From assembly GCA_021513695.1 (NCBI GenBank), contig CP084166.1, forward strand, positions 608,001 through 672,000: 64,000 nucleotides of DNA, read 5' to 3'. The stretch is from Candidatus Heimdallarchaeum aukensis. Lineage in GTDB: Archaea > Asgardarchaeota > Heimdallarchaeia > Heimdallarchaeales > Heimdallarchaeaceae. The notes beneath the pieces are model-generated. The model was not told where the DNA came from. It did no database searches and saw only the letters and a program-made list of their open reading frames with translations. The position numbers and the translations under genes were made by a program. Of this stretch, positions 9,422 to 49,525 are shown piece by piece. How positions within the stretch are numbered: position 1 is the first letter of the stretch; the number at the start of each line of letters is the position of its first letter.

Positions 9422-9432
9422 GAGTTGAAGTT

Positions 9433-10287
9433 ATGGAAAGTTTAGCAAATAAATTCAAGAAAATTAACAATAATATTAATGTTTTAATCAGTCAAATTAA
9501 AAAAGTTATAATTATCCAACTTAACTATCCAATAGACTTTGTTACACAAATATTCACAGCAGTTTTTGTTGGTTTATGGTTCGTCTTTCTTTTCCAGTCA
9601 TTATCTAGTGGAAATGTTTCTGAATCAAGTGATTTTGGAGCTTTTATGGTTTGGGGTTTAGTCGCCTTCTTCTTCTACAGTACAGCTTTATGGTCTATAG
9701 GTAGATTCGTAAGAAGAGAACAATTAACAGGAACTTTGGAATCTATTTGGATTACACCAAATAATAAAAATTGGGTAATTATTTCGAATGGAGTGGGAGA
9801 ATACTTCATTTTTGCTGCTGCAAACCTATTTATAATTACAGCTTTCTCACTTTTTGTTAAAATACCTTTTAACAATCTTGGAATGGGAATAATTATCTTA
9901 TTTTTAGAGTTTGTTCAATCTATTGGATACGGTCTATTTTATGGAGCTCTTGTCTTCAAAATAAAAAATGCTAATGCAATAAGTAACTTAGTACAGTTTG
10001 GTTCTATAATAATATGTGCAGTTTTCTTTCCCTTTAGCGTTTTCCCAGATTGGATGATATGGATATCTCGACTTCATCCTTTTAGTTGGGTAGTTGATTC
10101 TTTAAGATCTAATATGATGGGTAAAGAGCCTGAACTCATAAATAAAGGTATATGGGGACTAACAGCTTTGCAAACAGAGATTGTTATTCAAATTCTGATA
10201 AATATGGCACTTTTAGCTATTGGTCTGCTACTATTCAATTGTGTAAAAAAGAAAGCTTTAGTTGATGGAACTTTATCTCATTATTAG
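9433..10287 (+). CDS. ABC-2 type transporter permease (second subunit)
   Basis: Paralogous motif REQLTGTLESIWITP, multi-TM profile, and the same operon as the two upstream genes. Confidence 0.8.
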   Translation: MESLANKFKKINNNINVLISQIKKVIIIQLNYPIDFVTQIFTAVFVGLWFVFLFQSLSSGNVSESSDFGAFMVWGLVAFFFYSTALWSIGRFVRREQLTGTLESIWITPNNKNWVIISNGVGEYFIFAAANLFIITAFSLFVKIPFNNLGMGIIILFLEFVQSIGYGLFYGALVFKIKNANAISNLVQFGSIIICAVFFPFSVFPDWMIWISRLHPFSWVVDSLRSNMMGKEPELINKGIWGLTALQTEIVIQILINMALLAIGLLLFNCVKKKALVDGTLSHY

Positions 10288-13883: not shown

Positions 13884-13983
13884 TTTTTTCTTTCTTCTAT
13901 TTTCAATTTGCTAAATGTTTAATTAGTATACTGAGACAAATTTTAGGTATTTACTTGATTTATTGGTAGTATTTTTACTTATG

Positions 13984-13993
13984 TTTATAAATA
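13984..13993 (+). promoter_or_regulatory. Candidate archaeal TATA box for the gene starting at 14018
   Basis: tttataaata is centred about 30 nt upstream of the ATG. This is weak evidence because the whole window is AT-rich. Confidence 0.3.
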
Positions 13994-14017
13994 AAAAATA
14001 CTATATTTTATTGCAAA

Positions 14018-16018
14018 ATGAAAAGTTTTTTACCTAAATTTCTGCTTAATGAAATCGATCTTTATTTAGATGATTCTCAGAAGTCTATTTTTGAAGAGAA
14101 GGTTAAAAGTATTGTAAGTAATGCTTCTGACTATGATACGATTTCCAAGGACATTACTGCCTTTCTTTTGAATGAAGATTTTACTGATTTAACGACTTAT
14201 GATCAAATGCTTATTCTTGTTTCAATTCTTCTAAATTACTGGAAAAAGGATTATTCTCTTATTTTTAGCATCTATGACAAATTTCATTCTTTTGATTTAC
14301 CTCTTAGCGTTATGATTTGTTTTCTTCTATTTTTTCAAGAATCTTTTGATTTAACCACTTTTAACCTTTGGAGAGAGAAGATAGAAGAGTACATTACAAA
14401 CATTTCTGATTCTACTGAAAAAGAATTTCTTAAAACTGCTATTGAGCAATTTGCTTCTAAGCTTGAGCAAAGGCCTGAGGTTGGTTATCGTTCTATGAAT
14501 CAGCTTATTCGTTCTCTTGAGGAGAATGAGCATATTTCTTATCGATATCCTTTTGTTTTCGAGGCTTTAGAGATTGATCTTATTCAGTACTCTAACATTT
14601 TAGCTGATGAAGTTTTTTCTGAAATCTGGATTGAGTCCGCTAGAAGAAGAGCTGAAGTTATGGAAAACTATGGCATGTTAGTTCAAGTTAACAGCCTTCT
14701 TGCTAGTATTTTAGTTAAAGAGTATCATCTTGAAAAAGCTAAAGAGAAAATTGAGGAGGGGTTAGAGATTGCTAAGAGGATCAATTCTCCTATTTTAGCT
14801 GCTCAAATTGAGTTGAACAAGGCCTTGTTATTGAAGATGCAAGGTAAGTTGGACGAAGCTTTGAAGTTATATGAAAAAATTGCTAAAGTTAAGAATCTTC
14901 CTCAAACTTTTCAATTGGATATTTACAGTAAAATAGGTGAAATTTATCTCAACAAGGACGAGATAGTTAAAGCTGAAGAATACTACCTTAAAGCTCACGA
15001 GATTAATAAGAAACTTAATTTTATCAATCCTCTTGTTGAAATAGTTATAGGTTACATTAACCTGATTTTAGAGAAAGATAAGGGGGAAGCTTTAGATGAG
15101 GGGTTGAAGATTGCTGAAGAACAGTTTGATTTTTCTTCTATTCCTTACTACTACTTCTACAAAGGTATTTATGAGCAACAAAGGGTTAACTTATCCTTAT
15201 CTATTGAATACCTTGAACAAGCTTTGAACTCTTTTGAGCACCAAAAGAACTTTGAGGGTATTGTTTATACTAACGGTGCATTGGCAGAGTCTTATCTTCA
15301 GATTTACAAGCTTCTTCACGATAACAAATATTCTTCTCGGTTCCTCTATTATATTGACAATCTTATTGAAATACTAAAGGAGTTAAACAATCCTTTGTAT
15401 GTTGAAGCAATAAAGACTAAAGCAGGTTACTATTTAGATAAAGGTTTAATTAAAAATGCTGAAGATCTGTTTATTGATGGAATAGAATTTGCTAGGACAC
15501 GAGGATTAAAAGAGGAAGAAATATATCTTAAGGAATCGCTTACTAACAAGAAGAATTTAACAAAAATAACTTTAGAAGGTACTCAAATACTCTTTAGAAA
15601 AATAAGGATGTTCAGCTTTGGTAAGCATAAAACTGTTCCCACCAAATTATACTTACTTTTAGCCATTAATGAAGCTGGAATTCCTTTAGTTTCTCACTCT
15701 TTTACTGAAGAAGAGATGGTAGATGATCTTTTAGTTTCAGGGTTAATTTCAGCTATAATTAATTTCTCTTCTGAAGTTCTAGGAAAAGGAGGAGAAACCT
15801 TACGATCAATAAATCATGAGGGCAAAGCTGTTATAGTAGAGAAAAAGGACAATGTGATGGGTATCTTAGTTGCTGAAGATGAGAATTTCGAGATGAGACT
15901 GGAACTTAGACAGTTTTTGCAGAAAGCGCTTGATAAGTTAGTTTCTGGACTTCCTATTGTCAGAGAAAACGACAGTGAGATTTTTTCTATTATAGAAGAA
16001 GTTTTTGAGAGAAAATAA
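14018..16018 (+). CDS. TPR-like helical repeat protein with C-terminal longin-like alpha/beta module
   Basis: The central region has TPR-like units (e.g. LNKALLLKMQGKLDEALKLYEKIA, IYSKIGEIYLNKDEIVKAEEYYLKAHEI). The C-terminal 125 aa are KLYLLLAINEAGIPLVSHSF..DDLLVSGLISAIINFSSEVLG..TLRSINHEGKAVIVEKKDNVMGILVAED..FEMRLELRQFLQKALDKL. Confidence 0.8.
   Translation: MKSFLPKFLLNEIDLYLDDSQKSIFEEKVKSIVSNASDYDTISKDITAFLLNEDFTDLTTYDQMLILVSILLNYWKKDYSLIFSIYDKFHSFDLPLSVMICFLLFFQESFDLTTFNLWREKIEEYITNISDSTEKEFLKTAIEQFASKLEQRPEVGYRSMNQLIRSLEENEHISYRYPFVFEALEIDLIQYSNILADEVFSEIWIESARRRAEVMENYGMLVQVNSLLASILVKEYHLEKAKEKIEEGLEIAKRINSPILAAQIELNKALLLKMQGKLDEALKLYEKIAKVKNLPQTFQLDIYSKIGEIYLNKDEIVKAEEYYLKAHEINKKLNFINPLVEIVIGYINLILEKDKGEALDEGLKIAEEQFDFSSIPYYYFYKGIYEQQRVNLSLSIEYLEQALNSFEHQKNFEGIVYTNGALAESYLQIYKLLHDNKYSSRFLYYIDNLIEILKELNNPLYVEAIKTKAGYYLDKGLIKNAEDLFIDGIEFARTRGLKEEEIYLKESLTNKKNLTKITLEGTQILFRKIRMFSFGKHKTVPTKLYLLLAINEAGIPLVSHSFTEEEMVDDLLVSGLISAIINFSSEVLGKGGETLRSINHEGKAVIVEKKDNVMGILVAEDENFEMRLELRQFLQKALDKLVSGLPIVRENDSEIFSIIEEVFERK
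15641..16015 (+). other. Longin-like (beta-beta-alpha-beta-beta-beta-alpha) domain, copy 1
   Basis: The order of hydrophobic strand and helix segments, read from the sequence, matches the longin/SNARE-like fold rather than Roadblock (which begins with a helix). It is shared with 25497..25904 and 33719..34033. Confidence 0.5.
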
Positions 16019-16101
16019 AACTAAAATTAAAACTAAAATTGAAATTAAAAGCAAAATTGAAATTATAAAATCAAAGAAGGTAAAAATTAGGAAAAAAGAG
16101 A

Positions 16102-18084
16102 TTAGGAAACTAAAGGTCTAACTTGATACTTTAGTCCTATAATTTTCATTATATCTACTGCATCTTCAATGGTGTTTGCTGATACTTCTAGTTCTTCAAT
16201 TATTTGATCTATATAGAGTATTTCTACTGTACTCATCTTTTCTGTCTCTGGAAGAAGTTTTTCTAGAGCTTTATGATTATTTATGTCTAATTCATGTTCT
16301 ATAGCATGTACATCGTTAAATATTGGATGAGAAGCAAGTGGTTGAATGCATACTACTTCTAATACTTCTACTGCTTTGTCGATCAAGTCGCATAGTAAAT
16401 CACACTCTTTTCTCAAGTATTGGGCAAAATAATCTTCTATTTTCTCTCTTGGAATATAGAGTATTTTCCTTAGAGAGCGTAAGATGTAACCTATCGCTTT
16501 ATCGAGTGTTGTTGTAAGTTTGTAAAAGTGGTAGTCATCTGGAGCAGGTCTAACACTGCTGTACATTACTTGAGTAACCTTAAATACAAGATCATCTGCA
16601 CGCCTTTCTTCTTCTTTTGCTTCCCTCATAAGTTTAATGGCTTGTTCTTTATCGCCATCCAAATATTTCTTAAATGACTGAGCTAGTAAATGAATTGTTT
16701 TCTGTACTTTTTCTGCGTGTTTTATTGAATGAGAGGCTTGCACCCATCCTGGTCTTGTTTCTATTGCTAATATTAAGAATGATAAGCCAAGAATGATTAA
16801 TAGTATTCCACTTACTAAGAAAGGAAATTTGAAGACATTACTAACTACACTATTGCCTAGAAACTGTAATGATTCAAAATTTACTACTAGTCCTGCTAAA
16901 CCGAGTACAAGTAAAGGTCCAGTGAAGTAGCCTGAATCTAAAGATGAGCGATAAACACCTATACTTTTTTCTCTTTTTATTATAGGAACAACATCCTTTG
17001 TTATACTTGGAAGAGAAGGATAATACAGAGAAGTACCTAGTCCAGCAAGCAAAGTTAATAATACTACAACTCCAAAAACATCAGTGAATATAATCAGTAT
17101 AATACTAGATCCAGCAAGAATAAATCCAAGTATCATAGGTGTTTTTCTTCCAATTCTATCGCTTAATTTACCCGTGAAAGGCATACTTATTGACCAAGCT
17201 AAAGTGAAAACTGAGGTGGCTATACCAATTTGTACATTAGAAAAACCGTAAACAGTTGATAATAGGAGCGGAAAAATCAAAACTAGAATACTATCTGTTA
17301 TTCTAGAAATGTGTCCTCCCAAATTTGCTAAGATTAGTGTTGGAACTCTAAAAATATTTTTTGTACTCCATCTACTTTCCACTTTTGTTGCATCCAACAG
17401 TACTGAATCTTTTGTTCCTGCAACCAGATCTGTAGTTTCTACATTCTTAATAAATACAAAACCAAAAGCTAGAGCTGTTCCTGCAATTATTAAAGCAAAG
17501 ATGAAAGTTTCAGCAAAACCTAAGTTATTTGCTATCACACCTGCTAAGAATGAACCTAAACTTGAGCCTAAGTACACTGAAAATTCCATTGAACCCACTG
17601 AAAAAGCTGCTCCTTCGTAACCTGCAATATCAGTGAGTGCTGACATAGTCGAAGTAAAGAGTAAACCTAATCCCCCTCCGATGAAAGCGTTACCTAAAGG
17701 TAAAGCCCATAAGTTTCTTGAAAATGCTAAAGCGAATGAACCACAAAGAAGCAATATTAGTCCTATTCTAATAGTCCATTTTCGTTGATATTTGTCACTA
17801 ATAGATGAGCTAAAGAATCCTGCTATACCTTTAAATAGCCCATAAGCTATTACAGCAGAAGATATTTGGAGAAAAACTATGAAACTTTTTTGGAAATTTT
17901 CTTTTGATTCAAAGAGAGGAAAATCGGTAAATGATTCACCAAAGAGAGAAAGAGAGGTTCTTTGAACACCATAAGCTATACCTGCAAAAAGTAGTACAGT
18001 AATTATTGGTCCCCACTTGGAGATAGACTTTAAAAATGAGAAACTTTCCAGCTTTTTTTCTTTCATTTCCATACAATTATTCAA
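16102..18084 (-). CDS. MFS transporter fused to a C-terminal PhoU_div/DUF47-like helical domain
   Basis: Twelve-TM-like profile with MFS motif A in both halves (SDKYQRKWTIRIG, LSDRIGRKTPMILG). The C-terminal ~210 aa are soluble and helical: KLMREAKEEERRADDLVFKVTQVMYSSVRPAPDDYHFYKLTTTLDKAIGYI, resembling the DUF47 pattern E-x-E-x-x-AD...P-x-D-x-x...L-x-x-x-LD-x-I. Confidence 0.75.
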   Translation of the reverse strand: MNNCMEMKEKKLESFSFLKSISKWGPIITVLLFAGIAYGVQRTSLSLFGESFTDFPLFESKENFQKSFIVFLQISSAVIAYGLFKGIAGFFSSSISDKYQRKWTIRIGLILLLCGSFALAFSRNLWALPLGNAFIGGGLGLLFTSTMSALTDIAGYEGAAFSVGSMEFSVYLGSSLGSFLAGVIANNLGFAETFIFALIIAGTALAFGFVFIKNVETTDLVAGTKDSVLLDATKVESRWSTKNIFRVPTLILANLGGHISRITDSILVLIFPLLLSTVYGFSNVQIGIATSVFTLAWSISMPFTGKLSDRIGRKTPMILGFILAGSSIILIIFTDVFGVVVLLTLLAGLGTSLYYPSLPSITKDVVPIIKREKSIGVYRSSLDSGYFTGPLLVLGLAGLVVNFESLQFLGNSVVSNVFKFPFLVSGILLIILGLSFLILAIETRPGWVQASHSIKHAEKVQKTIHLLAQSFKKYLDGDKEQAIKLMREAKEEERRADDLVFKVTQVMYSSVRPAPDDYHFYKLTTTLDKAIGYILRSLRKILYIPREKIEDYFAQYLRKECDLLCDLIDKAVEVLEVVCIQPLASHPIFNDVHAIEHELDINNHKALEKLLPETEKMSTVEILYIDQIIEELEVSANTIEDAVDIMKIIGLKYQVRPLVS

Positions 18085-37975: not shown

Positions 37976-38047
37976 GAACTCTTTTAGTGCTAATTTATTA
38001 AAACTCTTTTCTTAGTTTTTAAAAAGTAATAGTAATAGTAAAAAAGT

Positions 38048-38953
38048 TCAGTCAGTAATGGTAATAAACTCAATTTTCTCAATATTTAGGAATCCAAGTT
38101 GAGATAATTCATTTACAATTGTGATAAAATCCTCAAAAGATATATTTTTTGCTAATTTCTGTTGATATACATCAAGTAAGGTTTTATGTTGATTACCAAT
38201 ACAATGAGTGATTATTTTTTCATAATTTGAAAAATTCTTAAAAGTTAATGTATCAATGATATTGTTCCATTGTCTTCTAAAAACAGAATAAAATTTCAGT
38301 GTTGAATGAGGATAAGCACTTTTAGCATGAAGTATTAAATCTAATTCTAAAATTTCATCAGTTGAAGGATTTTTTTCTAAATTGGGGTCTAAATATAAGA
38401 TTAGGTAAGAAAGCATTTCTTCATCTAGAAGAATAATTGCTTCCAAGATTGAAGCTAGTTTAGATAACCATTCTTTAGCTCTCTCTAATTCTATTTGTTT
38501 ATTTATTTGAGCTTTAATATCAATGTAACCAAGTTCTGAATTTGATTCTACTTCTACACCTTGACTTCCATCTAAAACAAATTTCGATTGTCTTAATCTA
38601 TCATTTATTTCAATTGTTTTTAGGTTCTTTCCTTTAAAACTCTTTAATTTAGAAATTTTTTTAGTAGAGAGATCAACTTTTTGTGGAGTTGGAATATTAA
38701 AAGAGGTTATTTGTTCAGTTCTTGCATCAGTGCCTAGTTTAACTGGAACTTGTGATCTTACAGTCAGACTTTTATCAACATATAAAATAATAGCATTTAA
38801 TTTTGAATCAGCACAGTTGTGCAAGTCTACATATTCTGTATATCCTTTAGAATCTACCTCAGAATGAAGAGTAGGATCAACGTAAATTACTCTTGTTTTT
38901 CGGCAGAGGTTGCACTCATATTCAATTTTTACTTTTTTATTATGAATAGTCAA
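38048..38953 (-). CDS. Hypothetical protein (possible N-terminal CxxC...HxC metal site, C-terminal winged-helix-like end)
   Basis: Long ORF with normal composition. Has CNLC-x27-HNC. No family recognised. Confidence 0.55.
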   Translation of the reverse strand: MTIHNKKVKIEYECNLCRKTRVIYVDPTLHSEVDSKGYTEYVDLHNCADSKLNAIILYVDKSLTVRSQVPVKLGTDARTEQITSFNIPTPQKVDLSTKKISKLKSFKGKNLKTIEINDRLRQSKFVLDGSQGVEVESNSELGYIDIKAQINKQIELERAKEWLSKLASILEAIILLDEEMLSYLILYLDPNLEKNPSTDEILELDLILHAKSAYPHSTLKFYSVFRRQWNNIIDTLTFKNFSNYEKIITHCIGNQHKTLLDVYQQKLAKNISFEDFITIVNELSQLGFLNIEKIEFITITD

Positions 38954-39051
38954 ATATATCCAAACCCCAGTGTATATTAAATCTATCTTTCAAAAAGATT
39001 TTATAAATCTTACTAGAGATTCTGAAAGTCCTAACGTGTAACTTTTTTCAA

Positions 39052-39930
39052 CTATAATTTACGAACAGTATTTTTTGTTATCTTTTCTTCTATGAAATTT
39101 ACAAGCAATTTTTCTAACTCTTTTCTTTTTTTTGCCAAAACAAAAACTCCGTTTCCTAGCATTATCTGACCTACATATAATTCAGAATAATCTTTGGATT
39201 GTTCTACTATCTCTTTTACTTTTGCTGTTTCCAAACCACATTTTTCAGTAAAGAATTGTATGTTCTTGGCAAAGACTGAAACAGAAGGATTTGCATATAA
39301 TTTGGACAGAACTTTTTTTCCAGCATTGATAATATTTTTCTTTTTTTCAGCATTTCGTATTATATCTTTAGTTTTTAGAGGACCAAAAGCTTTAGTAGCA
39401 ATAATATATTTCTCATCTTCAATCAAAGGTTCTGTTATTCCTATTCCCGGAGCTCCTTCTTTTCTTCGTAGCTCCCACCCAGCTTGATAAAGACCTATTA
39501 TATCTCCCAACCCTCCTCCTTCTTCTACTTCTGCAATGTGAGCTATCTGGAATATTTTTTCTTTAGATAAACCTAGATCGAAGAAATCATTTAAACAAAA
39601 AGATAAACTTAAAGCTCCTGCTGCACTTGCTCCAAATCCAGAAGAAAGGGGAACTTCAAAGGTATGAAACACATTTATATCTAGAAACTGTTTTTCTACT
39701 TTTAATAACTTGGCGAACTGAGTAAGTACATTTTCACTTACTTTTGCATCTTTTTTTTCAACTTCATCAAAATAAACATGATTTCCATCTTCTGAATGCT
39801 CAACTTCAGTTATTATTCCACGATTTATTGAAAAACCTGCTCCCTTCGACCCTACATATAAAGGGTTAGTTTGTTCATCACATATTTCAAATATTCCCGT
39901 AATATGTCCAGCTACCCAGTATTTTACCAA
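39052..39930 (-). CDS. Pantoate kinase (archaeal CoA pathway, GHMP kinase family)
   Basis: GHMP motif II PLSSGFGASAAGALSLS and an N-terminal AGHITGIF as I recall for COG1829 pantoate kinases. The ~290-aa size fits. It lies immediately downstream of, and co-oriented with, ketopantoate reductase. Confidence 0.65.
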   Translation of the reverse strand: MVKYWVAGHITGIFEICDEQTNPLYVGSKGAGFSINRGIITEVEHSEDGNHVYFDEVEKKDAKVSENVLTQFAKLLKVEKQFLDINVFHTFEVPLSSGFGASAAGALSLSFCLNDFFDLGLSKEKIFQIAHIAEVEEGGGLGDIIGLYQAGWELRRKEGAPGIGITEPLIEDEKYIIATKAFGPLKTKDIIRNAEKKKNIINAGKKVLSKLYANPSVSVFAKNIQFFTEKCGLETAKVKEIVEQSKDYSELYVGQIMLGNGVFVLAKKRKELEKLLVNFIEEKITKNTVRKL

Positions 39931-39969
39931 ATCCTATCAGTCCCTAATTATTGTATTTTCTTTAATTGC

Positions 39970-40977
39970 TTATAATTTTACTACCGATTGAATAGCCTTC
40001 AATTCTATAGTTGCTTGTTCTCTTGTTGTTTTCTTCGATTCCAGCTCAATTATTAAGTTTACTAAATAGTTATTCAGAGGTAAAGTTAATCCTAGATTTT
40101 GTCCTAAACGAATTATTGCCCCATTTATACTATCAATCTCTGTTTTTACCCCCTTATTGATATCTTGAAGCATACTGCAATAGTTTGCAGAAGTTACATT
40201 AATTACTTCAAGAACTTTCTTGTAAGCTTCTTCGAAAGATATTTCAACAAATTCTTGTGCGACAGGAAGAATCTCTTTTATTAACCCTTTAACAACCTTT
40301 AACAAAAATTCATTTTCTTTTATTTTTCCATTTCTAATTCCTAAAATTGCTCCAATGGGGTTTATACATGAATTAACAATAGCTTTCATCCATACATCTT
40401 TTTGGATATTTTTTGATATTTCACATTCTAACCCTGATTTGCTTAATATCTCTTTCCAAAGAAGTATATTTGTTTGATCAGAATGATTAACAGGTCCAAT
40501 AAAAGTTTGACCTTTGGCTGTTTCTTCAATTATATTACCATCTTTTCTGTTTGAACCTATAGAAGAAACGGCTCTAGTAATTTTCCATTTAGGATTAGCT
40601 TTAACGTAAAATTTTTCATTTTCTAGTCCATTTTGAAAAATAAGAATAGAAGCATTTTCTAACAATACTTCTGCTAAATATGGAGCAAGAATTTTATTAT
40701 TATAACTTTTTGTGGCTACAATACACTTTGAAATTTTTCCTTTAAACTTTTCAGGCAAATTAGAAAAAACAGTAGGATAATAACGTTTTGGTGCAATGTT
40801 TTCTGATAGTTTCACTGATATTCCTTTTTCTAGTGCAAGTTGAGTTCCTCTTTCTGAAGTTAGACTAATACATTTGAAAATACCTAAAGAATCAATCCGT
40901 ACATAAAGAACGCTTCCGATTGCTCCAAGTCCTGCAACTAAAAGTAAAGGTTTGTTACTCACAGATATATAATTCAA
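39970..40977 (-). CDS. panE: 2-dehydropantoate 2-reductase (ketopantoate reductase)
   Basis: N-terminal Rossmann motif VAGLGAIGS, then FQNGLENE, VWMKAIVNSCINPIGAI, and SMLQDINKGVKTEIDSINGAI. These are all hallmark PanE/ApbA segments. Confidence 0.85.
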   Translation of the reverse strand: MNYISVSNKPLLLVAGLGAIGSVLYVRIDSLGIFKCISLTSERGTQLALEKGISVKLSENIAPKRYYPTVFSNLPEKFKGKISKCIVATKSYNNKILAPYLAEVLLENASILIFQNGLENEKFYVKANPKWKITRAVSSIGSNRKDGNIIEETAKGQTFIGPVNHSDQTNILLWKEILSKSGLECEISKNIQKDVWMKAIVNSCINPIGAILGIRNGKIKENEFLLKVVKGLIKEILPVAQEFVEISFEEAYKKVLEVINVTSANYCSMLQDINKGVKTEIDSINGAIIRLGQNLGLTLPLNNYLVNLIIELESKKTTREQATIELKAIQSVVKL

Positions 40978-41023
40978 TACATAATAAAAAATTTTTATTT
41001 AGATACTAAATATTAGTGAGAGA

Positions 41024-43123
41024 ATGAGTAATACTGACAAAAAAATAGAGATTTTTAATAATCTTTTTTTAAAAATCAAAAAACAGATAATAGATAACCA
41101 GAGCAGTTCTAAACTTAAATTTGATGAAAGAGAAGTATTACTCAACTCATTTATTGTCTCAATAAAAACTCTTCTTATCAAAGAAATGTTTCTTAAGGAA
41201 GAAAAAGTTGAGATAGAAAAAAAAATTAATTTGAATTACTTTTTCATAGAATTAGATAATATCTTTAGAGAAATATTTACCGATGGCTCTTTCCGAAAAG
41301 CTGATTTAGAAATCATTAGAGAAAAATCAATACAACAACTGATTTTACAATACTTAGAAAGCAAAGACTCGATAATTATTGATTTAGCAGGAAAGGATTT
41401 ATTCTCTCAAATATATGAAACTGCCCTCAACAAAAATGAAAAAGATCAACTAGGCTTATTTTATACTCCTGAAATTATCGTTAATTATATCCTAAATTTA
41501 GTAAATTATAAGACTGATTCAGAAATTGTAAACAAAAAGATACTTGATCCAAGCTGTGGTTCAGGAAGTTTTCTAGTCAAATCTGTAAATAGGTTATTAC
41601 AAGCGTTAAAGAAAGAAAATTTAGAAGAAAGTGAAATTCTATACAAGATAAGAAATGCTGTTTTTGGTATAGACATTGATCCTATAGCTGTTTTTCTTTC
41701 TAAAACTAATATCCTATTCCAGATTTTTCCTTTATTTATCACCCTCTACAAAAAAAGAACTTTGACACAATTTCCTCCTTTGCATGTTTATTGTTTTGAT
41801 TCTCTAAACAAAAAAAGTAGAAATAAAGATACAACTTCTTTTAAGATTATTAATAGAGAAAAAGAGTTTACCTCAGGTTTTGATTTTATTGTTGGAAATC
41901 CTCCTTATATTGAATCTAAAAAAATGGATATTGAAACAAAGAAAAAATGTATAGAGAACTTTCCTGAAATTTGTAAAGGAGCTTTTGATATATACATCTG
42001 TTTTATTCAACTTGGTTTAGACTTACTTAGTGTAAATGGAAAGTTAGGTTTTATTATTCCAAACAAATTTCTTTCTGCTAACTATTCTAAAGCACTAAGA
42101 AAGAAGATTATCTATGAATTTGACATTCTACATCTAGTAGACCTTTCTTCTTCAAATATTTTTAAAAATGCAAGTGTTTATCCTATAATTATTTCAATTA
42201 AAAAAAGGAAATCTAAATCCGAAGGCATAAAAAATAACTTTTTGATAAGTAAAGTAGAAGGACAAATTACGAATATTGAGGAAATCAAAGGAATACCAAT
42301 AAATCAATCTTTTTTCAAAAAAACTGTTAATAACTTTATTTTTTCTTTTCCAAATGATTTAGACGAAGCAGAACTTGTAAAACGTTTAATTATGACTAGC
42401 CCTTTTAAACTTGGAGAATTCCTTAAGATTAGCTGGTCAGTTTCTTTCCATAGAAAAGGATTAAGAGAACAATTTGTTTTTACTAAAAATGTTGATGGTA
42501 ACTTTAGAAAAATTTTAGGTGGAAAGAAGTTTGGAGGAAATTCTGAAGTCAAAAGATATTTGATACAATGGGATGGTCATTGGATTGACTACAATAGAGA
42601 AAAAGCAAAAAGACTGAATAATCCCTTTCCTCCATTAAGTTTATTTAACAATGAAAAAATAATCATCTGTCAAAATAGCAAAAGAATTCGAGCTGTTCTA
42701 GACAAAGAAGGTTTCATTTGCAAAGATATTTTCTTTGTAGCTAAAATTACTCCAAAGACGCTAAATACAAGTCTAAATTATGAAGTGATATTATCTGTAA
42801 TTAATAGTAAACTAATGAGCTATTTATACGATAGAATTTTTTCTAGTACTCACGTTTCAGGAAGATATTTACACTATTTACCAACTTATTTACATTCACT
42901 TCCTTTTCCTAAACTGTCTGAAATAGAAAAAAAACAGTTACATGAGCTCACGAAGAAAATAATGAAAAAAGAGATAACAGAAAAGGATTTTATTAAAATA
43001 GATAAAGAAATTGATAAGATAATTTACAATGCATTTGGATTAGAAAATCATGAAATAGAAATAGTAGAAAAATATGTTTCATCGTATATGTCTTTAAAAA
43101 AATTAAAGGATATAAGAAAATAA
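41024..43123 (+). CDS. N6-adenine DNA methyltransferase, Eco57I/TaqI-like (gamma class) with C-terminal target-recognition domain
   Basis: LGLFYTPEIIVNYIL (motif X), ILDPSCGSGSFLV (motif I), FGIDIDPIAV, FDFIVGNPPYI (motif IV, NPPY). I recognised no PD-(D/E)xK nuclease motif and there is no neighbouring restriction gene. Confidence 0.85.
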   Translation: MSNTDKKIEIFNNLFLKIKKQIIDNQSSSKLKFDEREVLLNSFIVSIKTLLIKEMFLKEEKVEIEKKINLNYFFIELDNIFREIFTDGSFRKADLEIIREKSIQQLILQYLESKDSIIIDLAGKDLFSQIYETALNKNEKDQLGLFYTPEIIVNYILNLVNYKTDSEIVNKKILDPSCGSGSFLVKSVNRLLQALKKENLEESEILYKIRNAVFGIDIDPIAVFLSKTNILFQIFPLFITLYKKRTLTQFPPLHVYCFDSLNKKSRNKDTTSFKIINREKEFTSGFDFIVGNPPYIESKKMDIETKKKCIENFPEICKGAFDIYICFIQLGLDLLSVNGKLGFIIPNKFLSANYSKALRKKIIYEFDILHLVDLSSSNIFKNASVYPIIISIKKRKSKSEGIKNNFLISKVEGQITNIEEIKGIPINQSFFKKTVNNFIFSFPNDLDEAELVKRLIMTSPFKLGEFLKISWSVSFHRKGLREQFVFTKNVDGNFRKILGGKKFGGNSEVKRYLIQWDGHWIDYNREKAKRLNNPFPPLSLFNNEKIIICQNSKRIRAVLDKEGFICKDIFFVAKITPKTLNTSLNYEVILSVINSKLMSYLYDRIFSSTHVSGRYLHYLPTYLHSLPFPKLSEIEKKQLHELTKKIMKKEITEKDFIKIDKEIDKIIYNAFGLENHEIEIVEKYVSSYMSLKKLKDIRK

Positions 43124-43321
43124 CAGTTAACTGTTGTATAAGCTAATTTCTGCTTATAATGCAAAAATTCTATCTGATTATTTTTCAATGTCCTATCGTT
43201 ACTTATAATTTAAAAAGGTAAAAAATTAAAGGATTAAATGATTATTTCTCAAAATTAAAAAAAAGAGAAATAAATTATAAAAGAGTATTAACTCATATCT
43301 TTGTTTACTTTCTCTGTAACT

Positions 43322-43817
43322 TTATCTAAAACTCCTACCTATTAGTTTATCTTTATTATATAGCTCTATTTCTTCTTTGACAGTAAGTGGGCTTTCTTGT
43401 GATAAATCTTGTTTATTTATAAGAATTAACAATGGTTTTCTGCTATCCACTATTAAAAACATGTAATCCAAAGAAAAAACGAGAAACTTCAAACGCATCA
43501 CTTTCAGATGAAGGTTTTATTGTTCCATCAATAACATAAATAACTGCATCGGCTTGAGTTACTCCTAAAGCCAACAGACTTTCCCGATAAAGTTCTTGTC
43601 CTCCTACATCGATAGCTGATAACTCCCAATCAGCAATTTTTATAGGTTGTTACCTAATATCTATCCCAAGAGTAGTACGTGGATCATCTAACACTGATTT
43701 TCCCGTCTCTAACTATCTAACAAGAGTAGTTTTTCCCGCACCAAAAGCTCATAATAATACAATATTTGCTTCTTTAGAAATATTTTTCTTTAAAAAAATG
43801 CTTCCTAACCAACTCAT
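43322..43817 (-). pseudogene. Arf/Sar-family small GTPase pseudogene (3 in-frame stops + at least 1 frameshift)
   Basis: Hand translation of the minus strand gives MSWLGSIFLKKNISKEANIVLL*AFGAGKTTLVR*LETGKSVLDDPRTTLGIDIR*QPIKIADWELSAIDVGGQELYRESLLALGVTQADAVIYVIDG. After a frame change near a T6 run it continues ..VDSRKPLLILINKQDLSQESPLTVKEEIELYNKDKLIGRSFR*. P-loop GAGKTT, Arf-type DVGGQ and NKQD are present. Stops are TGA (43749-43751), TAG (43713-43715) and TAA (43650-43652). Confidence 0.8.
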
Positions 43818-43939
43818 TAAGCTCAGCTAAAAATTTAATCACTATTTTAAAAACATTCTTTCTTTCCAAATCACTAGTTTATCTGTTGTTTCATTTATTT
43901 CGGAAAAAGTTAAAATCATAAAAATATAAATTGTAATTA

Positions 43940-45670
43940 ATGTCAAAAAACCAAAGTAACTTAGATACTAATCTTAAACAAAAGAAAGAGCTGAATAGCG
44001 AAAAAAAGAAATCTACAAAAAAGAATAGTAAAAACAAAGAAAAATGGTATATTAGATGGTCATTCAACATTTTATCAGTTTTTTTTGCAATTATCTCATT
44101 GATTGGTAGTTTTATTTTACTAATTTACGACATTTTTGTTCCTCGAACATTAAGAGAACTAGTTCCGATTTTGAATATGTTTAGAAAATATATCTTAATT
44201 GCAGCAGAACTTTTTTCGGGTAAAAAAAGCAAAGAAGTAGCAGAAGTTGTTTCAGAGCTAGAAGAGATAAAAATGAAAGAAGAAAAAATAATGAAGAACT
44301 ATCCTATTCGTCGAGGAATAGGAGAGGCTATTAACCTTGGTCTTCATCCCGTAATCATTTTTGCTATTCCAACAGCAATATGGGGAAAAAATCTTCATCA
44401 ATTGTTTGAAAGTTGGGGAATACCTGTTTCATTAGGCATATTATTGTTTGGAACAGGTCTATTATGTATTTCTTGGATAGCTACCATATTTGGGCCTATT
44501 TACGCATTATTTCATGAGTGCAGTATCTTTATGCTCAAAAGAGGGTCTTATCGTTGGGCAGAATTTTTTCAAGATTTAGAGAACCTTTTTGCTTTACCTT
44601 ATTACACTGCGAGGTCTAGTTTCAGCATTCTTGATGCTCCACCTATCTCTGCTGAAACTCTTGAAGAATTCAAGCTTGATATAATGGATGACATCGGACA
44701 AATAAAAAATAGAATTGCAGATATTCTTTCTCTTGATGCCACTCAAGTTCCAGAAAGATCAAAACAAATGTTACAAGAATTGCTAATCGAAACTCAACAA
44801 TCACTAGGTTCTATTAACATATCTGAAATAAAAGAAGTAACAGCAAGACAATTTGCACTCCTTATTTGGAATAAAGAAGGATCAATGTTCCCATGGAGGA
44901 GAAATGAAGCTCTAGAAGAATTTGCGAAGAAAAACAACATGTCTGTAAAGGAAGCAAAAAAAACTATTCAACTCATTGCAAAGAAAGCAGTTGAAGGATT
45001 TACTTCTAAAGACTTGTATTTTAGTATAATGATAACTGGAGCTTTAAAAGGAATTGCTGAACTAGAAGAAAAATATAAACAATTCATGAGTGATATAGAA
45101 TATACTTCTACTGCACTTTCACTTTCTTTAGGGGCACAACAATACATCATAGATACTTTTACAGAAAAACCATTCTACAAGAAATTACTTAAGGTTCTTG
45201 TAGATAGTTTTATAGCACTATTCTTACCTTATATAATGTTACTTGTTGTTATTTTCAAATACTTTAAACATGTAGTAGGCCAAACGATAAGAAATATTGT
45301 TAGCATTAAAGACTTAAAAAAGAAGAAAATATTTAGGAACAAGATAAAAGAAATTAAAGAAACACTTTACAGTTCTTATCATTCAATAGGAGATTCAAAA
45401 TTTAGCCTAAAAGAGACCTTTGACATAGATTTTGGAGAATTTTTCAAAAAACTCGGTAAATTTTTCGTAAAAGTTCTACTTTTAGTTCCTCTCCTATTTT
45501 GGAGTCTAATAAAGGCTATCTACATAAGAATACAAAAGTTGTTGAGAAGAAGAACGGAAGAGGAAAAGAACAAGAGAAAGTTTGAGAAAGAATTAGCAAC
45601 AAAAACTTTAGTAGCAATGTACGAAGAACTCTATGAAAAAATTGTTTTAAGCAACTTGTACTATACATAG
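43940..45670 (+). CDS. Hypothetical multi-pass membrane protein with K-rich N-terminus
   Basis: Several TM segments (ILSVFFAIISLIGSFILLIY, PVIIFAIPTAIW, GILLFGTGLLCISWIATIFGPIYAL, ALFLPYIMLLVVIF, VLLLVPLLFWSLI) are separated by helical soluble regions. No family recognised. Confidence 0.6.
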   Translation: MSKNQSNLDTNLKQKKELNSEKKKSTKKNSKNKEKWYIRWSFNILSVFFAIISLIGSFILLIYDIFVPRTLRELVPILNMFRKYILIAAELFSGKKSKEVAEVVSELEEIKMKEEKIMKNYPIRRGIGEAINLGLHPVIIFAIPTAIWGKNLHQLFESWGIPVSLGILLFGTGLLCISWIATIFGPIYALFHECSIFMLKRGSYRWAEFFQDLENLFALPYYTARSSFSILDAPPISAETLEEFKLDIMDDIGQIKNRIADILSLDATQVPERSKQMLQELLIETQQSLGSINISEIKEVTARQFALLIWNKEGSMFPWRRNEALEEFAKKNNMSVKEAKKTIQLIAKKAVEGFTSKDLYFSIMITGALKGIAELEEKYKQFMSDIEYTSTALSLSLGAQQYIIDTFTEKPFYKKLLKVLVDSFIALFLPYIMLLVVIFKYFKHVVGQTIRNIVSIKDLKKKKIFRNKIKEIKETLYSSYHSIGDSKFSLKETFDIDFGEFFKKLGKFFVKVLLLVPLLFWSLIKAIYIRIQKLLRRRTEEEKNKRKFEKELATKTLVAMYEELYEKIVLSNLYYT

Positions 45671-45676
45671 GATTTA

Positions 45677-46645
45677 CTAATCTGGAAGAAAGTCAGGGTG
45701 ATAAACAAGTTTATCCAGATCTCTAGGTGGAGCGTGAGCTAAAAATCCATCTTGATAAGCCAGAGGGTAAAAAGTTCGTACTCTAGAATAAAGTGTAGGA
45801 TAATCAATTATCATTACAATTTTGTTCTCTTGTGTAAGTAATTTTAGCAATGAAGTAACTTCTTCAATCACATTTTTAGGTCGTTTGATATTATTTAGAA
45901 AATAGACATCTTCTCTACCTATCCCATCTATTGCTTGCCTGTATTCATCGCTTTCAAGCAGAACTTCACCATTTTGAGGAATAACTAAAAAGCTTGGTTT
46001 CTTTGATTTTGCGTATTTACTGATTGAAATAACAAAATCAATCATTTCTTCTTTAGCTGTTGGTCTTTCATCTTCATAATACTCAAAAGCGTCTATAATG
46101 TCTAAATAACAACCGTCAAAACCTGCTGCAATAATTCTATCTAAATAACTTTCATTTGTTCCAAAAATAATCCTCTGCCATTCAGGATTCCAATATTTAA
46201 CTTTATAATTGCCCTCCCAATCAGGATTCTCAACATCTAGCCATTCAGGAGCATTATCATCAGGTATTCCATCATTATCTACATCCCAGCTATTATCCCA
46301 ATAAAAACGGTATGTTTCAGCTTCTCCTATACTCATATAACTGAGAAGTATTTTCTTTTCATTTCCTTCTCTCATGTATGAAACTTGACTATTATTATAT
46401 TCTAGTTCTTCACTTCCGTCTGCAGAGTAATCAATGATAATAAGGTCGTACTTGGAATTTGAAATTTCTTCAATGTCAATATTTTGAAGCTGATAGGCAA
46501 AATCATTAACAATAAATCCATTAACATTAAATTGTGGGGGGTTTTGAGTTTCCATATTGGGAAAATAGAAGAAATAAAAGTACAAACTTGTAATTATTAA
46601 AGAAAAAACAATTAAAAATATTAAAAATATGAAACGTTTTTTCAC
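45677..46645 (-). CDS. MJ1477/TM1410-family putative glycoside hydrolase (GH114 endo-alpha-1,4-polygalactosaminidase-like TIM barrel), membrane-anchored
   Basis: N-terminal anchor. YDLIIIDYS, LSYMSIGEAE, WNPEWQRII, GFDGCYLDIIDAFEY and QNG match my memory of the Glyco_hydro_114-like family pattern. Confidence 0.55.
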   Translation of the reverse strand: MKKRFIFLIFLIVFSLIITSLYFYFFYFPNMETQNPPQFNVNGFIVNDFAYQLQNIDIEEISNSKYDLIIIDYSADGSEELEYNNSQVSYMREGNEKKILLSYMSIGEAETYRFYWDNSWDVDNDGIPDDNAPEWLDVENPDWEGNYKVKYWNPEWQRIIFGTNESYLDRIIAAGFDGCYLDIIDAFEYYEDERPTAKEEMIDFVISISKYAKSKKPSFLVIPQNGEVLLESDEYRQAIDGIGREDVYFLNNIKRPKNVIEEVTSLLKLLTQENKIVMIIDYPTLYSRVRTFYPLAYQDGFLAHAPPRDLDKLVYHPDFLPD

Positions 46646-46720
46646 ATGTGTGATATAGCTATTATCCTTTATTAGTTTTGAGAATGATTTTTATAGATTA
46701 ATTAATCCTCCAGTTAAAAG

Positions 46721-48052
46721 CTACTCCTCCGTCCTCAGATTCTCAACTTCTTCTGTCTCATAATTTCCTTCTTTTATAAATAGAAGAAAGAATGTACCTA
46801 TAAAATAGATAGATCCTGTAATGTAAAAAGCTAATTGGAAATTGAAGGGTTTATCGTATTTGTTTAGAATAACTCCTCCAATAGGTTGACTAATACTGTT
46901 AAAGGCTGTAAAAGCTAAAGCGTCAATAGCACTAAAAGTTGCTCTTTGACTAGAAGGTAAGAGATCCATTACTATAGCATTAATTAAAGGCCACCCAGCA
47001 TTCATAAAAGCCTGTCTAAGAATGTAGATAACAAGTACAACAGAGAAGGGAGGAATAAAAGCAAATCCAAAAATAAGAACTACAGCAATAAACTCTAAAA
47101 AGAAAACTGCTTTAGCACGACCAAATTTCTTAGCAAATCTTAAAGCAATGGCTGAAAGAATAGCAGTTATTAATGGAGCTAAAGAGAATATAAGTGTAAG
47201 TTCAGAAATTGTTCGACCATAAATTGCTTCAAAAAAGCGTGGAAGAAAAGGAATAGATATACCAGCTCCAAAAGCAATTAGAAAATCTGCTAGTACGATT
47301 ATTAAAGGAGTTCTATAGAATGATAATTTTTCTCTAAAGGTTTTACAGTTTTTATATTTAGATAAAATTAAAGCGTCTTTTTTCTTTTCTTCCAATATCT
47401 CTTTAGTCTCAATTTGACCTTTAGAGTGAATAGACCTTTTATCGTGAATAAAGAAACCTAAAAATGCTGCAAAGATTATTACTGAAGCATAGATTTTAAT
47501 CACAGGAAGAATAACTTCTTCAGAATAAAGATCACCTAAATACCTGTAGATAAAGAAACCTACAACACCACCAATAGCTGTACATAACTGTTGAATAATA
47601 GACATAATCGTAAAAATCTTTGTTCGTGTACCTTTAGTTGTACAATCAGCAACTAAAGCTGACCCTGCAGGCATCATTAAAGAATTAGCTAAAGCAAAAA
47701 GGAATTGAATTACATATAGATAGGTCAAAGAATTAGCAAAAAAGTAGATTATCATCCCAGCTATGAAAAGAAAATTTGAAATCCAGATGAAGGCATCTCT
47801 TCTCCATCTATCAGAAAGAATACCAGAGACAATTAATCCTATAATTCCTACTAAACTAGTTGTTCCAAAAATCAATCCTACATCTATGTCTGTACCTCCC
47901 CATACATACACTAAAAAGAGCGTAGCTATATAGAAAGGAGTTTGAACTAATGAATAAATTGCAAATGCTCCAAAATATAGTTTCAAATTCAGGTTTAAGT
48001 TCTTTAATAATGAGATTTGTGCTCTGATATTCGCCCCTATCATAGTCTCCAA
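46721..48052 (-). CDS. MFS transporter
   Basis: Twelve-TM-like profile. Motif A-like GILSDRWRRDAFI. Confidence 0.8.
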   Translation of the reverse strand: METMIGANIRAQISLLKNLNLNLKLYFGAFAIYSLVQTPFYIATLFLVYVWGGTDIDVGLIFGTTSLVGIIGLIVSGILSDRWRRDAFIWISNFLFIAGMIIYFFANSLTYLYVIQFLFALANSLMMPAGSALVADCTTKGTRTKIFTIMSIIQQLCTAIGGVVGFFIYRYLGDLYSEEVILPVIKIYASVIIFAAFLGFFIHDKRSIHSKGQIETKEILEEKKKDALILSKYKNCKTFREKLSFYRTPLIIVLADFLIAFGAGISIPFLPRFFEAIYGRTISELTLIFSLAPLITAILSAIALRFAKKFGRAKAVFFLEFIAVVLIFGFAFIPPFSVVLVIYILRQAFMNAGWPLINAIVMDLLPSSQRATFSAIDALAFTAFNSISQPIGGVILNKYDKPFNFQLAFYITGSIYFIGTFFLLFIKEGNYETEEVENLRTEE

Positions 48053-48170
48053 CTCTTCGTTTATATAAATTTTTTAATGAATATAAAAACGTGTGTTAAT
48101 ACGAATAGTTTGACTATTAAACCAATCAATTAAAGCTAACAATTAAAAATATACAAATTTCAAAAAAATT

Positions 48171-48329
48171 CTACCTCTCTAACCAAATTTCTAAAGCTTC
48201 ACGTATCGTATCAAGAGCATCCTCAATATTTTCTGCGACTAGATCTCTTCTTTCTAAAAATGGACTGCTAATAAATAGAATATTATCTTCATCTTTTGAT
48301 ATCAGAATTGGTAATTCTTTTAATTGCAT
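48171..48329 (-). CDS. HicB-like (UPF0150) small protein, 52 aa, below the ORF-track cutoff
   Basis: Hand translation gives MQLKELPILISKDEDNILFISSPFLERRDLVAENIEDALDTIREALEIWLER*. It follows the HicB N-terminal-domain pattern (V-I-x-K-D-E-D-G-x-(Y/F)-x-A.. P-x-L.. G-x-T-x-E-E-A-x-x-N-x-x-E-A-(I/L)-E-x-x-L-E). No HicA partner is seen. Confidence 0.4.
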   Translation of the reverse strand: MQLKELPILISKDEDNILFISSPFLERRDLVAENIEDALDTIREALEIWLER

Positions 48330-48436
48330 AACATTTGTATTGTATGAAGATATTTAAACCTAAAACCAGTTACTCTTTTTCGGATAACCAAACTTAAATA
48401 TTGTTACCGTTTTTGCTGAATTGACGAGGAATTAAA

Positions 48437-49525
48437 ATGGATTCAAGAAAAGGAGATAAAATTTATGGACCTATAATTGTTTCTGCAGCAAATGCAGCAA
48501 GATCTTTTGATGCACCAGTAAGATATCCTCTATTGTTCAACTCTCCAGACGTCTTTGTAAAACCAATGGCTATGCCCAGAGCTTCTTCTTTCATTACTTT
48601 AATTGAGCATTTTCTAGGATTGTTAATTTTATTACCAATTCTTCTAATAAAAAGAGGAACAAAGCAAGTTTTTGGTGTTTTCAAGGAGTTTGATAGAAGA
48701 GACTGGATTTCTTTAATTTTCATTTCTGCTGGTGGTTCAGCTTTAGGGTTATTTTTCTTCCTAATTTCATTGGGATTAGGAAACCCTACAGTAGCGATAT
48801 TAATTCAAAAATCTCAACCACTCATAACACTGATTTTTGCAATTTTTATATTAAAAGAGAAACCAAGTCTACGTTTCTACGTTGTTCTTCTATTAGCAAT
48901 AACTGGTATTGGTCTGATAGCTTGGCCAGATATTTCAAAAAGTGTTCAAACTCTAGAGTTTACAGGACTAATTGCCATTCTTTGCTCACTTTTAGCAGCT
49001 GTTTTTTGGGGTGGTAGCACAGTTTTTGGAAGAATATTAACAAAAAAAGTTGATTATTGGAATTTAACCCTATTTAGGTATATTGGAGGATTTTTCTTTT
49101 TATTGGTCTTCAATATTTTTACTTTCACCTATAACTCAACCTATTTTGGGCTGCTTACACAAAAAATAAATGTTTTTGGACATTATGTGGATGGGTCATT
49201 TGTTCCTTTAGATTGGCAGTGGATAGGAATCCTTTGTATTCTCTACGCAGCTATACTTACTGGAGGAGTGCTTCCTTTAGCTCTCTATTATTTTGGTCTC
49301 ACAAGGTCCAAAGCTTCAGTAGCAGGGCTGGCAGAACTAGCTTTCCCTATTCTATCGATATTTATTAATTATTATTTCTTGGGATTTGGGTTAGAACCAA
49401 TACAAATTGTAGGAGCAATAATATTATTAGCAAGCGTTTCAACACTATCTTACATTAATGCTAAAGAGTTTGAACGAGATCAACAAATTCTTTTAGAAAA
49501 AGATAGAATGAAAGAAAAAAATTAA
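48437..49525 (+). CDS. EamA/DMT-superfamily transporter
   Basis: Ten-TM-like profile with two EamA-like halves (SAGGSALGLFFFLISLGLGNPTVAILIQKSQPLITLIFAIFILKEKP ; ...LALYYFGLTRSKASVAGLAELAFPILSIFINYYFLGFGLEPIQIVGAIILLASV). The true start may be internal. Confidence 0.75.
   Translation: MDSRKGDKIYGPIIVSAANAARSFDAPVRYPLLFNSPDVFVKPMAMPRASSFITLIEHFLGLLILLPILLIKRGTKQVFGVFKEFDRRDWISLIFISAGGSALGLFFFLISLGLGNPTVAILIQKSQPLITLIFAIFILKEKPSLRFYVVLLLAITGIGLIAWPDISKSVQTLEFTGLIAILCSLLAAVFWGGSTVFGRILTKKVDYWNLTLFRYIGGFFFLLVFNIFTFTYNSTYFGLLTQKINVFGHYVDGSFVPLDWQWIGILCILYAAILTGGVLPLALYYFGLTRSKASVAGLAELAFPILSIFINYYFLGFGLEPIQIVGAIILLASVSTLSYINAKEFERDQQILLEKDRMKEKN

Follow-up and report, generated by a model that had tools for sequence, protein, structure and literature searches.

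The GTPase families of Asgard archaea are expanded. Those of the ArfR type have been described and crystallised, HodArfR1 (PDB code, 8OUL) being an example (Vargova et al., bioRxiv 10.1101/2024.02.28.582541), and PMC11914678 covers 'AArfs'; in neither main text did searches turn up any mention of gene neighbourhood, operons or pseudogenes at the locus considered here. A separate Asgard-specific group, ArfL (Klinger et al. 2016; re-analysis in Vargova et al.), likewise displays the DxGGQ and NKQD motifs. Fusions of roadblock or longin domains with GTPases have been described by Tran et al. (PMC10933270); according to the same work, genes for small GTPases in the Lokiarchaeon MK-D1 generally do not share an operon with longin or roadblock genes.

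The locus lies in a window of 64,000 nucleotides, the whole stretch of DNA that was analysed, and is flanked by two genes: (i) a divergent, head-to-head neighbour encoding a 576-aa membrane protein with no Pfam or NCBIfam match, and (ii) a convergent methyltransferase gene. The flanking proteins match exactly UJG41351.1 and UJG41352.1 of Candidatus Heimdallarchaeum aukensis, whose chromosome comprises 3,081,793 bp, and thus confirm the Asgard host implied by an earlier note on this DNA. The description of the methyltransferase as an orphan is plausible, a nuclease gene being absent from the adjacent positions and the place being kept in relatives. Elsewhere, the window contains two genes for Ras-type GTPases, at 56-547 and 629-1195. 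As the earlier note stated, no ORF of at least 60 aa lies wholly within 43124-43939, the longest there comprising 59 aa. The stretch is very probably a non-functional remnant, a unitary pseudogene, of an ArfR-type gene of the Arf GTPase family. Three JGI metagenome contigs from other samples (L014, L015 and L016) show ~99% identity to this locus, and the syntenic locus of the sister species Ca. H. endolithica (L001) comprises, in order, the 576-aa gene, the Arf gene, an extra ORF, a gene for an Eco57I-type methylase, and ApbA. The features of the window copy and its surroundings are as follows:

43845..43857, minus strand: A/T-rich promoter-like element AATGTTTTTAAAA, 13 nt, located 40 nt upstream of the ATG
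43328..43817, minus strand: pseudogene of a small GTPase of the Arf family, assigned to the ArfR type by similarity; codons 1-163, from the ATG at 43817-43815 to GRSF
43749..43751, minus strand: in-frame TGA at codon 23, the first Gly of the P-loop; also in L014, L015 and L016
43713..43715, minus strand: in-frame TAG at codon 35; TAA at this place in L014
43650..43652, minus strand: in-frame TAA at codon 56; also in L014-L016
43474..43479, minus strand: T6 run with a 1-nt insertion; T5 in endolithica, T6 common to L014-L016
43322..43501, minus strand: residual ORF of 59 aa, GTG start, covering the NKQD part
43327..43337, minus strand: junction of the ~1.1-kb deletion, 11 nt, TAGGAGTTTTA, aligning to both flanks (blastn)
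43288..43329, minus strand: what is left of the downstream partner gene: its 13 final codons, LDKVTEKVNKDMS, and TAA, matching partner C-termini

Read on the minus strand from the ATG, the frame gives MSWLGSIFLKKNISKEANIVLL, a stop, AFGAGKTTLVR, a stop, LETGKSVLDDPRTTLGIDIR, a stop and QPIKIADWELSAIDVGGQ, and after the frame change it runs to KPLLILINKQDLSQESPLTVKEEIELYNKDKLIGRSFR and a stop. The longer reading past the third stop gives QPIKIADWELSAIDVGGQELYRESLLALGVTQADAVIYVIDGTIKPSSESDAFEVSRF and, following a one-base shift, SLDYMFLIVDSRKPLLILINKQDLSQESPLTVKEEIELYNKDKLIGRSFR and a stop, with the terminal TAA of the dead GTPase reading at 43324-43322. The signature motifs comprise G1, a stop followed by AFGAGKT(T); G3, AIDVGGQ; and G4, INKQD, the last one after the frameshift. 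The P-loop pattern GxxxxGK[ST] is still recognisable, its first Gly codon now being TGA where the relatives display GASGAGKTT.

The three stop codons lie exactly at the coordinates reported in the earlier note. In intact relatives codon 23 encodes Gly without exception (118/118), codon 35 encodes Tyr in 70 and Phe in 48 of the same 118 proteins, and codon 56 encodes Gln in 85 of them. Since the close relatives carry GGN at codon 23, TAT or TAC at codon 35 and CAA at codon 56, each stop corresponds to a single base change. The frameshift was correctly attributed to the T6 run, which lies at 43479-43474 and thus slightly off the earlier estimate of about 43465-43475; it precedes the DYM...NKQD segment, and taking one T from the run restores the frame, giving SRFSLDYMFLIVD as compared with SRFSFDYMLSIVD in the family. 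The L014-L016 contigs share the 3' deletion junction with the window, and L015 displays an additional 1-nt deletion in a T7 run. Because these contigs carry the lesions, the lesions are fixed and predate the divergence of the ~99%-identical populations. The residual ORF, which gene callers enter in other assemblies as a hypothetical protein of 58 aa, is retained in all four populations and lacks G1-G3.

The identification of the remnant as an Arf-type small GTPase, advanced in the earlier note together with a search against Arf profiles as the way to check it, is supported by the Pfam match, homologues, alignment and structure matches. The repaired translation of 164 aa matches PF00025 far more closely than chance would allow, with an E value of 1.4e-14 and a score of 54.4 bits where the cut-off is 22.3, covering profile positions 10-142 of 174, and Arf is the top match among six GTPase families in Pfam. 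A search of 5.8 billion proteins returned 169 homologues, the best of which (P0001; 83% identity, E 9.6e-82) is an intact protein of 188 aa from a related lineage, in which its gene occupies the syntenic position. Among the best 120 of the 169, most comprise 188-198 aa, the named sources are Heimdallarchaeota, Hodarchaeota, Promethearchaeota or the Asgard group, and the labels read 'ADP-ribosylation factor-like', 'GTP-binding protein' or similar. The best 60 solved-structure matches of P0001 all belong to the Arf family, with HodArfR1 (8OUL) at the top. In a blastp comparison that included two ArfL examples listed by Vargova et al. in Table S3, P0001 scores 82 bits with HodArfR1, 56 with human ARF1, 36-40 with the ArfL examples and 32 with Rab1A; phmmer gives 69 bits for P0001 against 8OUL. 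Since this similarity ranking, which is not a tree, puts HodArfR1 first, the ancestral gene is filed as ArfR type rather than in the separate ArfL group of Asgard archaea.

Comparison with these groups highlights common elements and differences. P0001 resembles HodArfR1 in the N-terminal extension before strand 1, the DVGGQ and NKQD motifs, and the SAK motif and C-terminal helix ending in WL, although the identity reaches only ~32%, the Trp that precedes DVGGQ is replaced by Ile throughout the subfamily, and the window copy is dead, with three stops, a frameshift and no G5. The P0001 family is found mainly in Heimdallarchaeia. The eukaryotic Arl1, Arl3, Arf6 and Arf1 follow HodArfR1 among the PDB matches, with ~27% identity, and share PF00025, the DxGGQ and NKQD motifs and a comparably long N-terminal extension, whereas a Gly2 myristoylation site is missing in the P0001 family. 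The ArfL examples, as given in Table S3, lack both the N-terminal extension and the SAK...WL C-terminus of P0001. The extension itself comprises 16 residues, MSWLGSIFLKKNISKE, with W3, L4, I7 and F8 spaced i, i+1, i+4 and i+5; its Eisenberg hydrophobic moment over residues 2-12 is low, 0.12-0.14 versus 0.57 for ARF1, an ambiguous outcome of a simple calculation that did not confirm the amphipathic character assigned to the N-terminus in the earlier note.

The 3' end of the gene is missing. Alignment of the window with L001 by blastn yields two segments, (i) window 43997-43327 versus L001 7770-8471 at 75% identity and (ii) window 43337-43268 versus L001 9573-9643 at 82% identity, which overlap by 11 nt in the window; the deleted segment corresponds to L001 8472-9572, with a junction microhomology of 9-11 nt. 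The deletion removed the Arf codons from ~164 to the end, after GRSF, including the G5 SAK motif and the C-terminal helix, together with nearly all of a downstream gene encoding a 349-aa partner protein. The G5 motif and C-terminal helix, absent from the window copy, are present in P0001, in the endolithica copy and in the orthologue P0002, and their absence is a lesion of the pseudogene, not evidence against Arf ancestry. The remnant of the partner gene matches the C-termini LLEFLDKITEKVKKEMG followed by a stop in L001 and ILEFLDKIVESIGKKV in P0123. A tail VTEKVNKDMS read in another frame had been considered as the Arf C-terminus and was rejected, the DNA alignment assigning it to the 3' end of the partner gene. 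The 3' truncation and the ~1.1-kb deletion had been overlooked in the earlier reading.

Intact homologues of the partner (P0122-P0125) comprise 348-349 aa, and an exhaustive HMMER search groups the protein into 63 representative clusters, with no match in Pfam or NCBIfam. At three intact loci (L006, L007 and L017) the partner gene follows an ArfR gene of the same subfamily at a distance of 4-17 nt, and the genes preceding the pair encode a conserved membrane protein and another protein, 182-298 aa long; the 283- and 298-aa upstream proteins of L006 and L007 have no homologue in the window or L001 by tblastn. The AlphaFold2 model of the partner (pLDDT 87.8) comprises three parts: (i) an N-terminal domain with the order beta-beta-alpha-beta-beta-beta-alpha-alpha, predicted to adopt the longin fold known from GTPase-activating (GAP) complexes of eukaryotes; (ii) a middle helix of ~45 residues; and (iii) a C-terminal alpha/beta domain, for which the best Foldseek matches are HodArfR1-GDP, Sar1 and Arf1. 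The sequence of this GTPase-like domain contains no P-loop, DxxG or NKxD and, because these motifs are missing, the domain is regarded as an Arf-like pseudoGTPase; this feature also separates the partner from the Asgard longin/roadblock-GTPase fusions (PMC10933270). The near-invariant residues comprise G19, G58-P59-L60-P61, D84 and R86. Compared to the longin subunits of the GAP complexes FLCN-FNIP, GATOR1 and C9orf72-SMCR8, the partner carries its GPLP in strand 3, not in the 'GP motif' region of strands 1-2 (PMC12290439).

The same gene pair is broken in Ca. H. endolithica. The protein annotated in strain PR6 as '50S ribosome-binding GTPase' (P0099, CP084167.1) is the positional orthologue of the window copy, located between the 576-aa gene and the Eco57I-type methylase gene; it shares 75% nucleotide identity with the window copy and is likewise a pseudogene, although annotated as a protein of 123 aa. 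It begins with MSWL, a stop and SIF, the TGA replacing codon 5; further along, one nucleotide is deleted ahead of KPLLILINKQD and codon 148 reads TAA, none of these lesions being common to the window copy; on the other hand, the SAK C-terminus and a damaged partner gene are kept. This partner gene carries a TAA at codon 21 and two frameshifts. In L008, a 95%-identical relative of endolithica, the TAA at codon 21 occurs without the two frameshifts, and these may thus be strain-specific or a Nanopore residue in the PR6 assembly, so that the nonsense codons are the robust evidence for decay in endolithica. Because the same gene pair at the same locus carries different lesions, the decay is parallel in the two species. 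A comparison with relatives, suggested in the earlier note, did reveal an intact copy at the orthologous locus: a 188-aa gene in L002. In this third lineage (L002/L003) the divergent neighbour upstream is again the same; the contig includes 313 aa of it, which show 91% identity to the counterparts in aukensis and in endolithica. No partner gene is found within 285 bp downstream of the intact orthologue in L003, so the pair is not kept adjacent in that intact lineage.

Ancestral codons were inferred from the three lineages and the outgroup L004. Branch pN/pS amounts to 0.22 for aukensis and 0.25 for endolithica versus 0.09 for the intact lineage (Fisher p ~0.02-0.04, with small counts), a signal of relaxed selection that is based on few substitutions. 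Because the whole-branch ratios are well below 1, most of each branch was under selection; assuming a ratio of 1 after a background of 0.09, the pseudogene phase would occupy ~15% of each branch, again from small counts. Of 54 positions conserved in at least 95% of the family, the pseudogene violates five and the orthologue none, the average of 118 intact members being 0.56; the violations include Trp82 to Leu and Phe116 to Leu, both specific to the window strain. Among aukensis-like populations the remnant diverges by 1.3-2.1% per site, and in the same populations the flanking genes diverge by 1.7-4.1% at synonymous and 0.2-0.65% at non-synonymous sites; the divergence of the remnant resembles the synonymous, not the non-synonymous, rate. 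The decay had been called recent in the earlier note, which is a relative term: it followed the split from the two sister lineages and is older than the divergence of the ~99%-identical populations.

An intact gene disguised by sequencing or assembly errors would be one rival account of the locus. The published genome did involve Nanopore scaffolding after multiple-displacement amplification (PMC8813620), and one of the lesions lies in a homopolymer. The contigs of Ca. H. aukensis, however, were assembled from Illumina PE150 reads with SPAdes, Nanopore data serving for scaffolding only (Wu et al. 2022, PMC8813620), and a separate Logan assembly of SRR15988954 is 100% identical across window 38024-48670 (10.6 kb). 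Moreover, the three JGI metagenomes carry the three stops, codon 35 being TAA in L014, the T6 run and the junction, and the missing G5 region reflects a 1.1-kb deletion, which is no base-calling error. Since the second assembly is identical and the metagenome contigs have the lesions, sequencing error is excluded as an explanation and its probability is practically nil: the lesions are genuine.

It is extremely unlikely that a protein is still made, whether by recoding (readthrough, programmed frameshifting, or insertion of selenocysteine or pyrrolysine) or in the form of working fragments, for instance from the 59-aa ORF. Such a reading could draw on the conserved promoter-like element and on the retention of the 58-59-aa ORF, which is gene-called in four assemblies. 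All three stop types occur, however, and the long neighbouring genes use the standard genetic code, on which grounds an alternative code or recoding was rejected; TAG has changed to TAA in one population and an extra frameshift has arisen in another; nothing remains of the P-loop Gly, of the conserved Trp82 or of the G5 region as a whole; and the 59-aa fragment is devoid of G1-G3, while the remnant diverges roughly as fast as synonymous sites in the flanking genes. Retention of the remnant for a non-coding role, as a promoter, UTR or antisense element acting on the 576-aa or methyltransferase gene, is very improbable as well. In its favour, all three lineages conserve the first 45 nt beside the 576-aa gene and the 13-nt element, with variation in the middle of the spacer, but this conservation is limited to the intergenic spacer: the coding body shares only 75% identity with endolithica compared to a genome-wide ANI of 88%, and the scan of the window returned no Rfam family and no tRNA. 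The promoter-like element is identical in both pseudogene-bearing species and the intact-gene lineage and presumably acts as a promoter; because it is perfectly conserved, transcription of the remnant may persist.

The non-functional remnant of an ArfR-type gene is thus the preferred reading, and the question arises whether it represents a redundant copy. The earlier note viewed it as one member of an expanded family; the Asgard expansion is indeed known, whereas the remnant does not look like a redundant copy, no closer intact paralogue from aukensis occurring among the best 120 of the 169 matches. Within these 120 matches, of at least 55% identity, the only one from a contig larger than 1 Mb is the truncated endolithica protein, which suggests that close intact paralogues of the subfamily are missing from both complete genomes. 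A search of genome contigs with P0001, in a collection without the aukensis genome, recovered two loci from Chloroflexota and, apart from these, Ca. H. endolithica alone. The case reads as loss of a subfamily rather than pruning of a duplicate.

The most likely course of events is as follows. The ancestor carried an ArfR gene head-to-head with the 576-aa membrane-protein gene, with the 349-aa longin and pseudoGTPase partner directly after it, the pair probably forming a two-gene module of GTPase switch and regulator. This module would have become dispensable in the genus Heimdallarchaeum. The aukensis lineage acquired three single-base nonsense mutations (Gly23 to TGA, Tyr35 to TAG and Gln56 to TAA), the 1-nt insertion in the T run, and the microhomology-flanked deletion of ~1.1 kb that took the guanine-recognition G5 end and the partner gene. 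All five lesions were in place before the present populations diverged, and the sequence has since drifted neutrally.

The pseudogene itself is real but ordinary, in an informative context. Counts of eukaryotic signature proteins in both circularised Heimdallarchaeum genomes should leave out this ArfR locus, and the parallel, lesion-independent loss in two sister species implies that the ArfR subfamily is dispensable for Heimdallarchaeum. As far as the searches show, the pairing of an ArfR gene with a longin/pseudoGTPase gene and its parallel loss appear to be undescribed. Adjacency, fold and co-decay point to the partner as a candidate regulator of the adjacent ArfR, to which it may have been functionally linked in the ancestor; since GTPase genes outside operons, as in MK-D1, make the matching of regulators difficult, the gene pair offers a testable candidate for an ArfR regulator. 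More tentatively, the dead gene might mark the loss of a two-gene module in which the longin-pseudoGTPase was the cognate regulator of ArfR, GAP-like or as a heterodimer, a possibility that we consider somewhat less likely than not. If true, the genome itself would pair an Asgard Arf with a longin like those of FLCN, GATOR1 and SMCR8, which touches on a question posed in PMC12290439, namely the identity of the GTPase served by the GAP-like longins of Asgard archaea. That both genes decayed independently in two species of Heimdallarchaeum would in that case constitute co-elimination evidence for a functional link.

In intact Heimdallarchaeia contigs the ArfR-type Arf-family GTPase gene is followed, after 4-17 nt, by a partner gene of 348-349 aa, as found at three loci:

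L006 1205-2846, intact ArfR and partner gene pair, Heimdallarchaeia contig
L007 2328-3966, intact ArfR and partner gene pair, Heimdallarchaeia contig
L017 1971-3600, intact ArfR and partner gene pair, Heimdallarchaeia contig

The partner protein has no match in a Pfam search; its predicted structure combines a longin domain with an Arf-like pseudoGTPase domain and also has a long helix. Upstream of the pair, all three loci carry two further genes, one for a conserved membrane protein of 275-283 aa and one for a protein of 182-298 aa; downstream, L017 additionally has an ORF of 81 aa and another Arf-type GTPase, its second.

In the sister species Ca. H. endolithica (CP084167.1, locus L001), the ArfR orthologue (7983-8567) and the partner gene (8573-9622) are both pseudogenes, with lesions that differ from those in the window; their present annotations are a GTPase of 123 aa and a hypothetical protein of 300 aa. 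In L008 (1-1174), a relative ~95% identical to endolithica, the only lesion of the partner gene is a TAA at codon 21, the frameshifts being absent, and unrelated sequence precedes the Arf 3' end right at the contig end, which may reflect an insertion or rearrangement, or simply an assembly break. In L018 (1-618), an intact partner gene is preceded by an ORF whose N-terminal half is GyrA-like and whose C-terminal half is that of an Arf. This ORF terminates in ...LVGR*, without SAK, and may be a chimera of the assembly or one more copy that has been rearranged or has decayed.

Two other small GTPases were recorded in the window, and ArfR-like proteins in Chloroflexota genomes:

window 56-547 (+), Ras-family small GTPase (Pfam Ras, E 4e-31), first of a tandem pair and perhaps truncated at the edge of the window
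window 629-1195 (+), second tandem Ras-family small GTPase (Pfam Ras, E 6e-26)
L010 4001-4486 and L011 4001-4486, ArfR-like proteins, Chloroflexota (Ardenticatenaceae, Promineifilum)

The Chloroflexota proteins share ~30% identity with Heimdallarchaeial ArfR over nearly the full length and are possible bacterial Arf-like GTPases.

Two features flank the dead gene:

window 43845-43857 (-), 13-nt element AATGTTTTTAAAA, located 40 nt upstream of the ATG of the dead gene
window 41024-43123 (+), 699-aa Eco57I/N6_Mtase/TaqI_C methylase

The element is identical across aukensis, endolithica and the lineage with an intact gene, even though the surrounding spacer carries indels. The methylase falls under all NCBIfam cut-offs, its best partial matches being BREX PglX methyltransferases, and has no adjacent nuclease gene. 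Endolithica, L004 and L008 all have it at the corresponding position, so the enzyme is probably solitary and a long-standing resident of the locus.

In L004, a more distant relative (GCA_054001415.1; loci compared, 8001-8588 versus 13959-16588), a 581-aa gene directly adjoins the methylase, with a spacing of 55 bp, and an intact ArfR with 71% identity sits beside a DUF4139 gene at a distance of 5.4 kb. This separation indicates that the ArfR gene moved within the neighbourhood during evolution.
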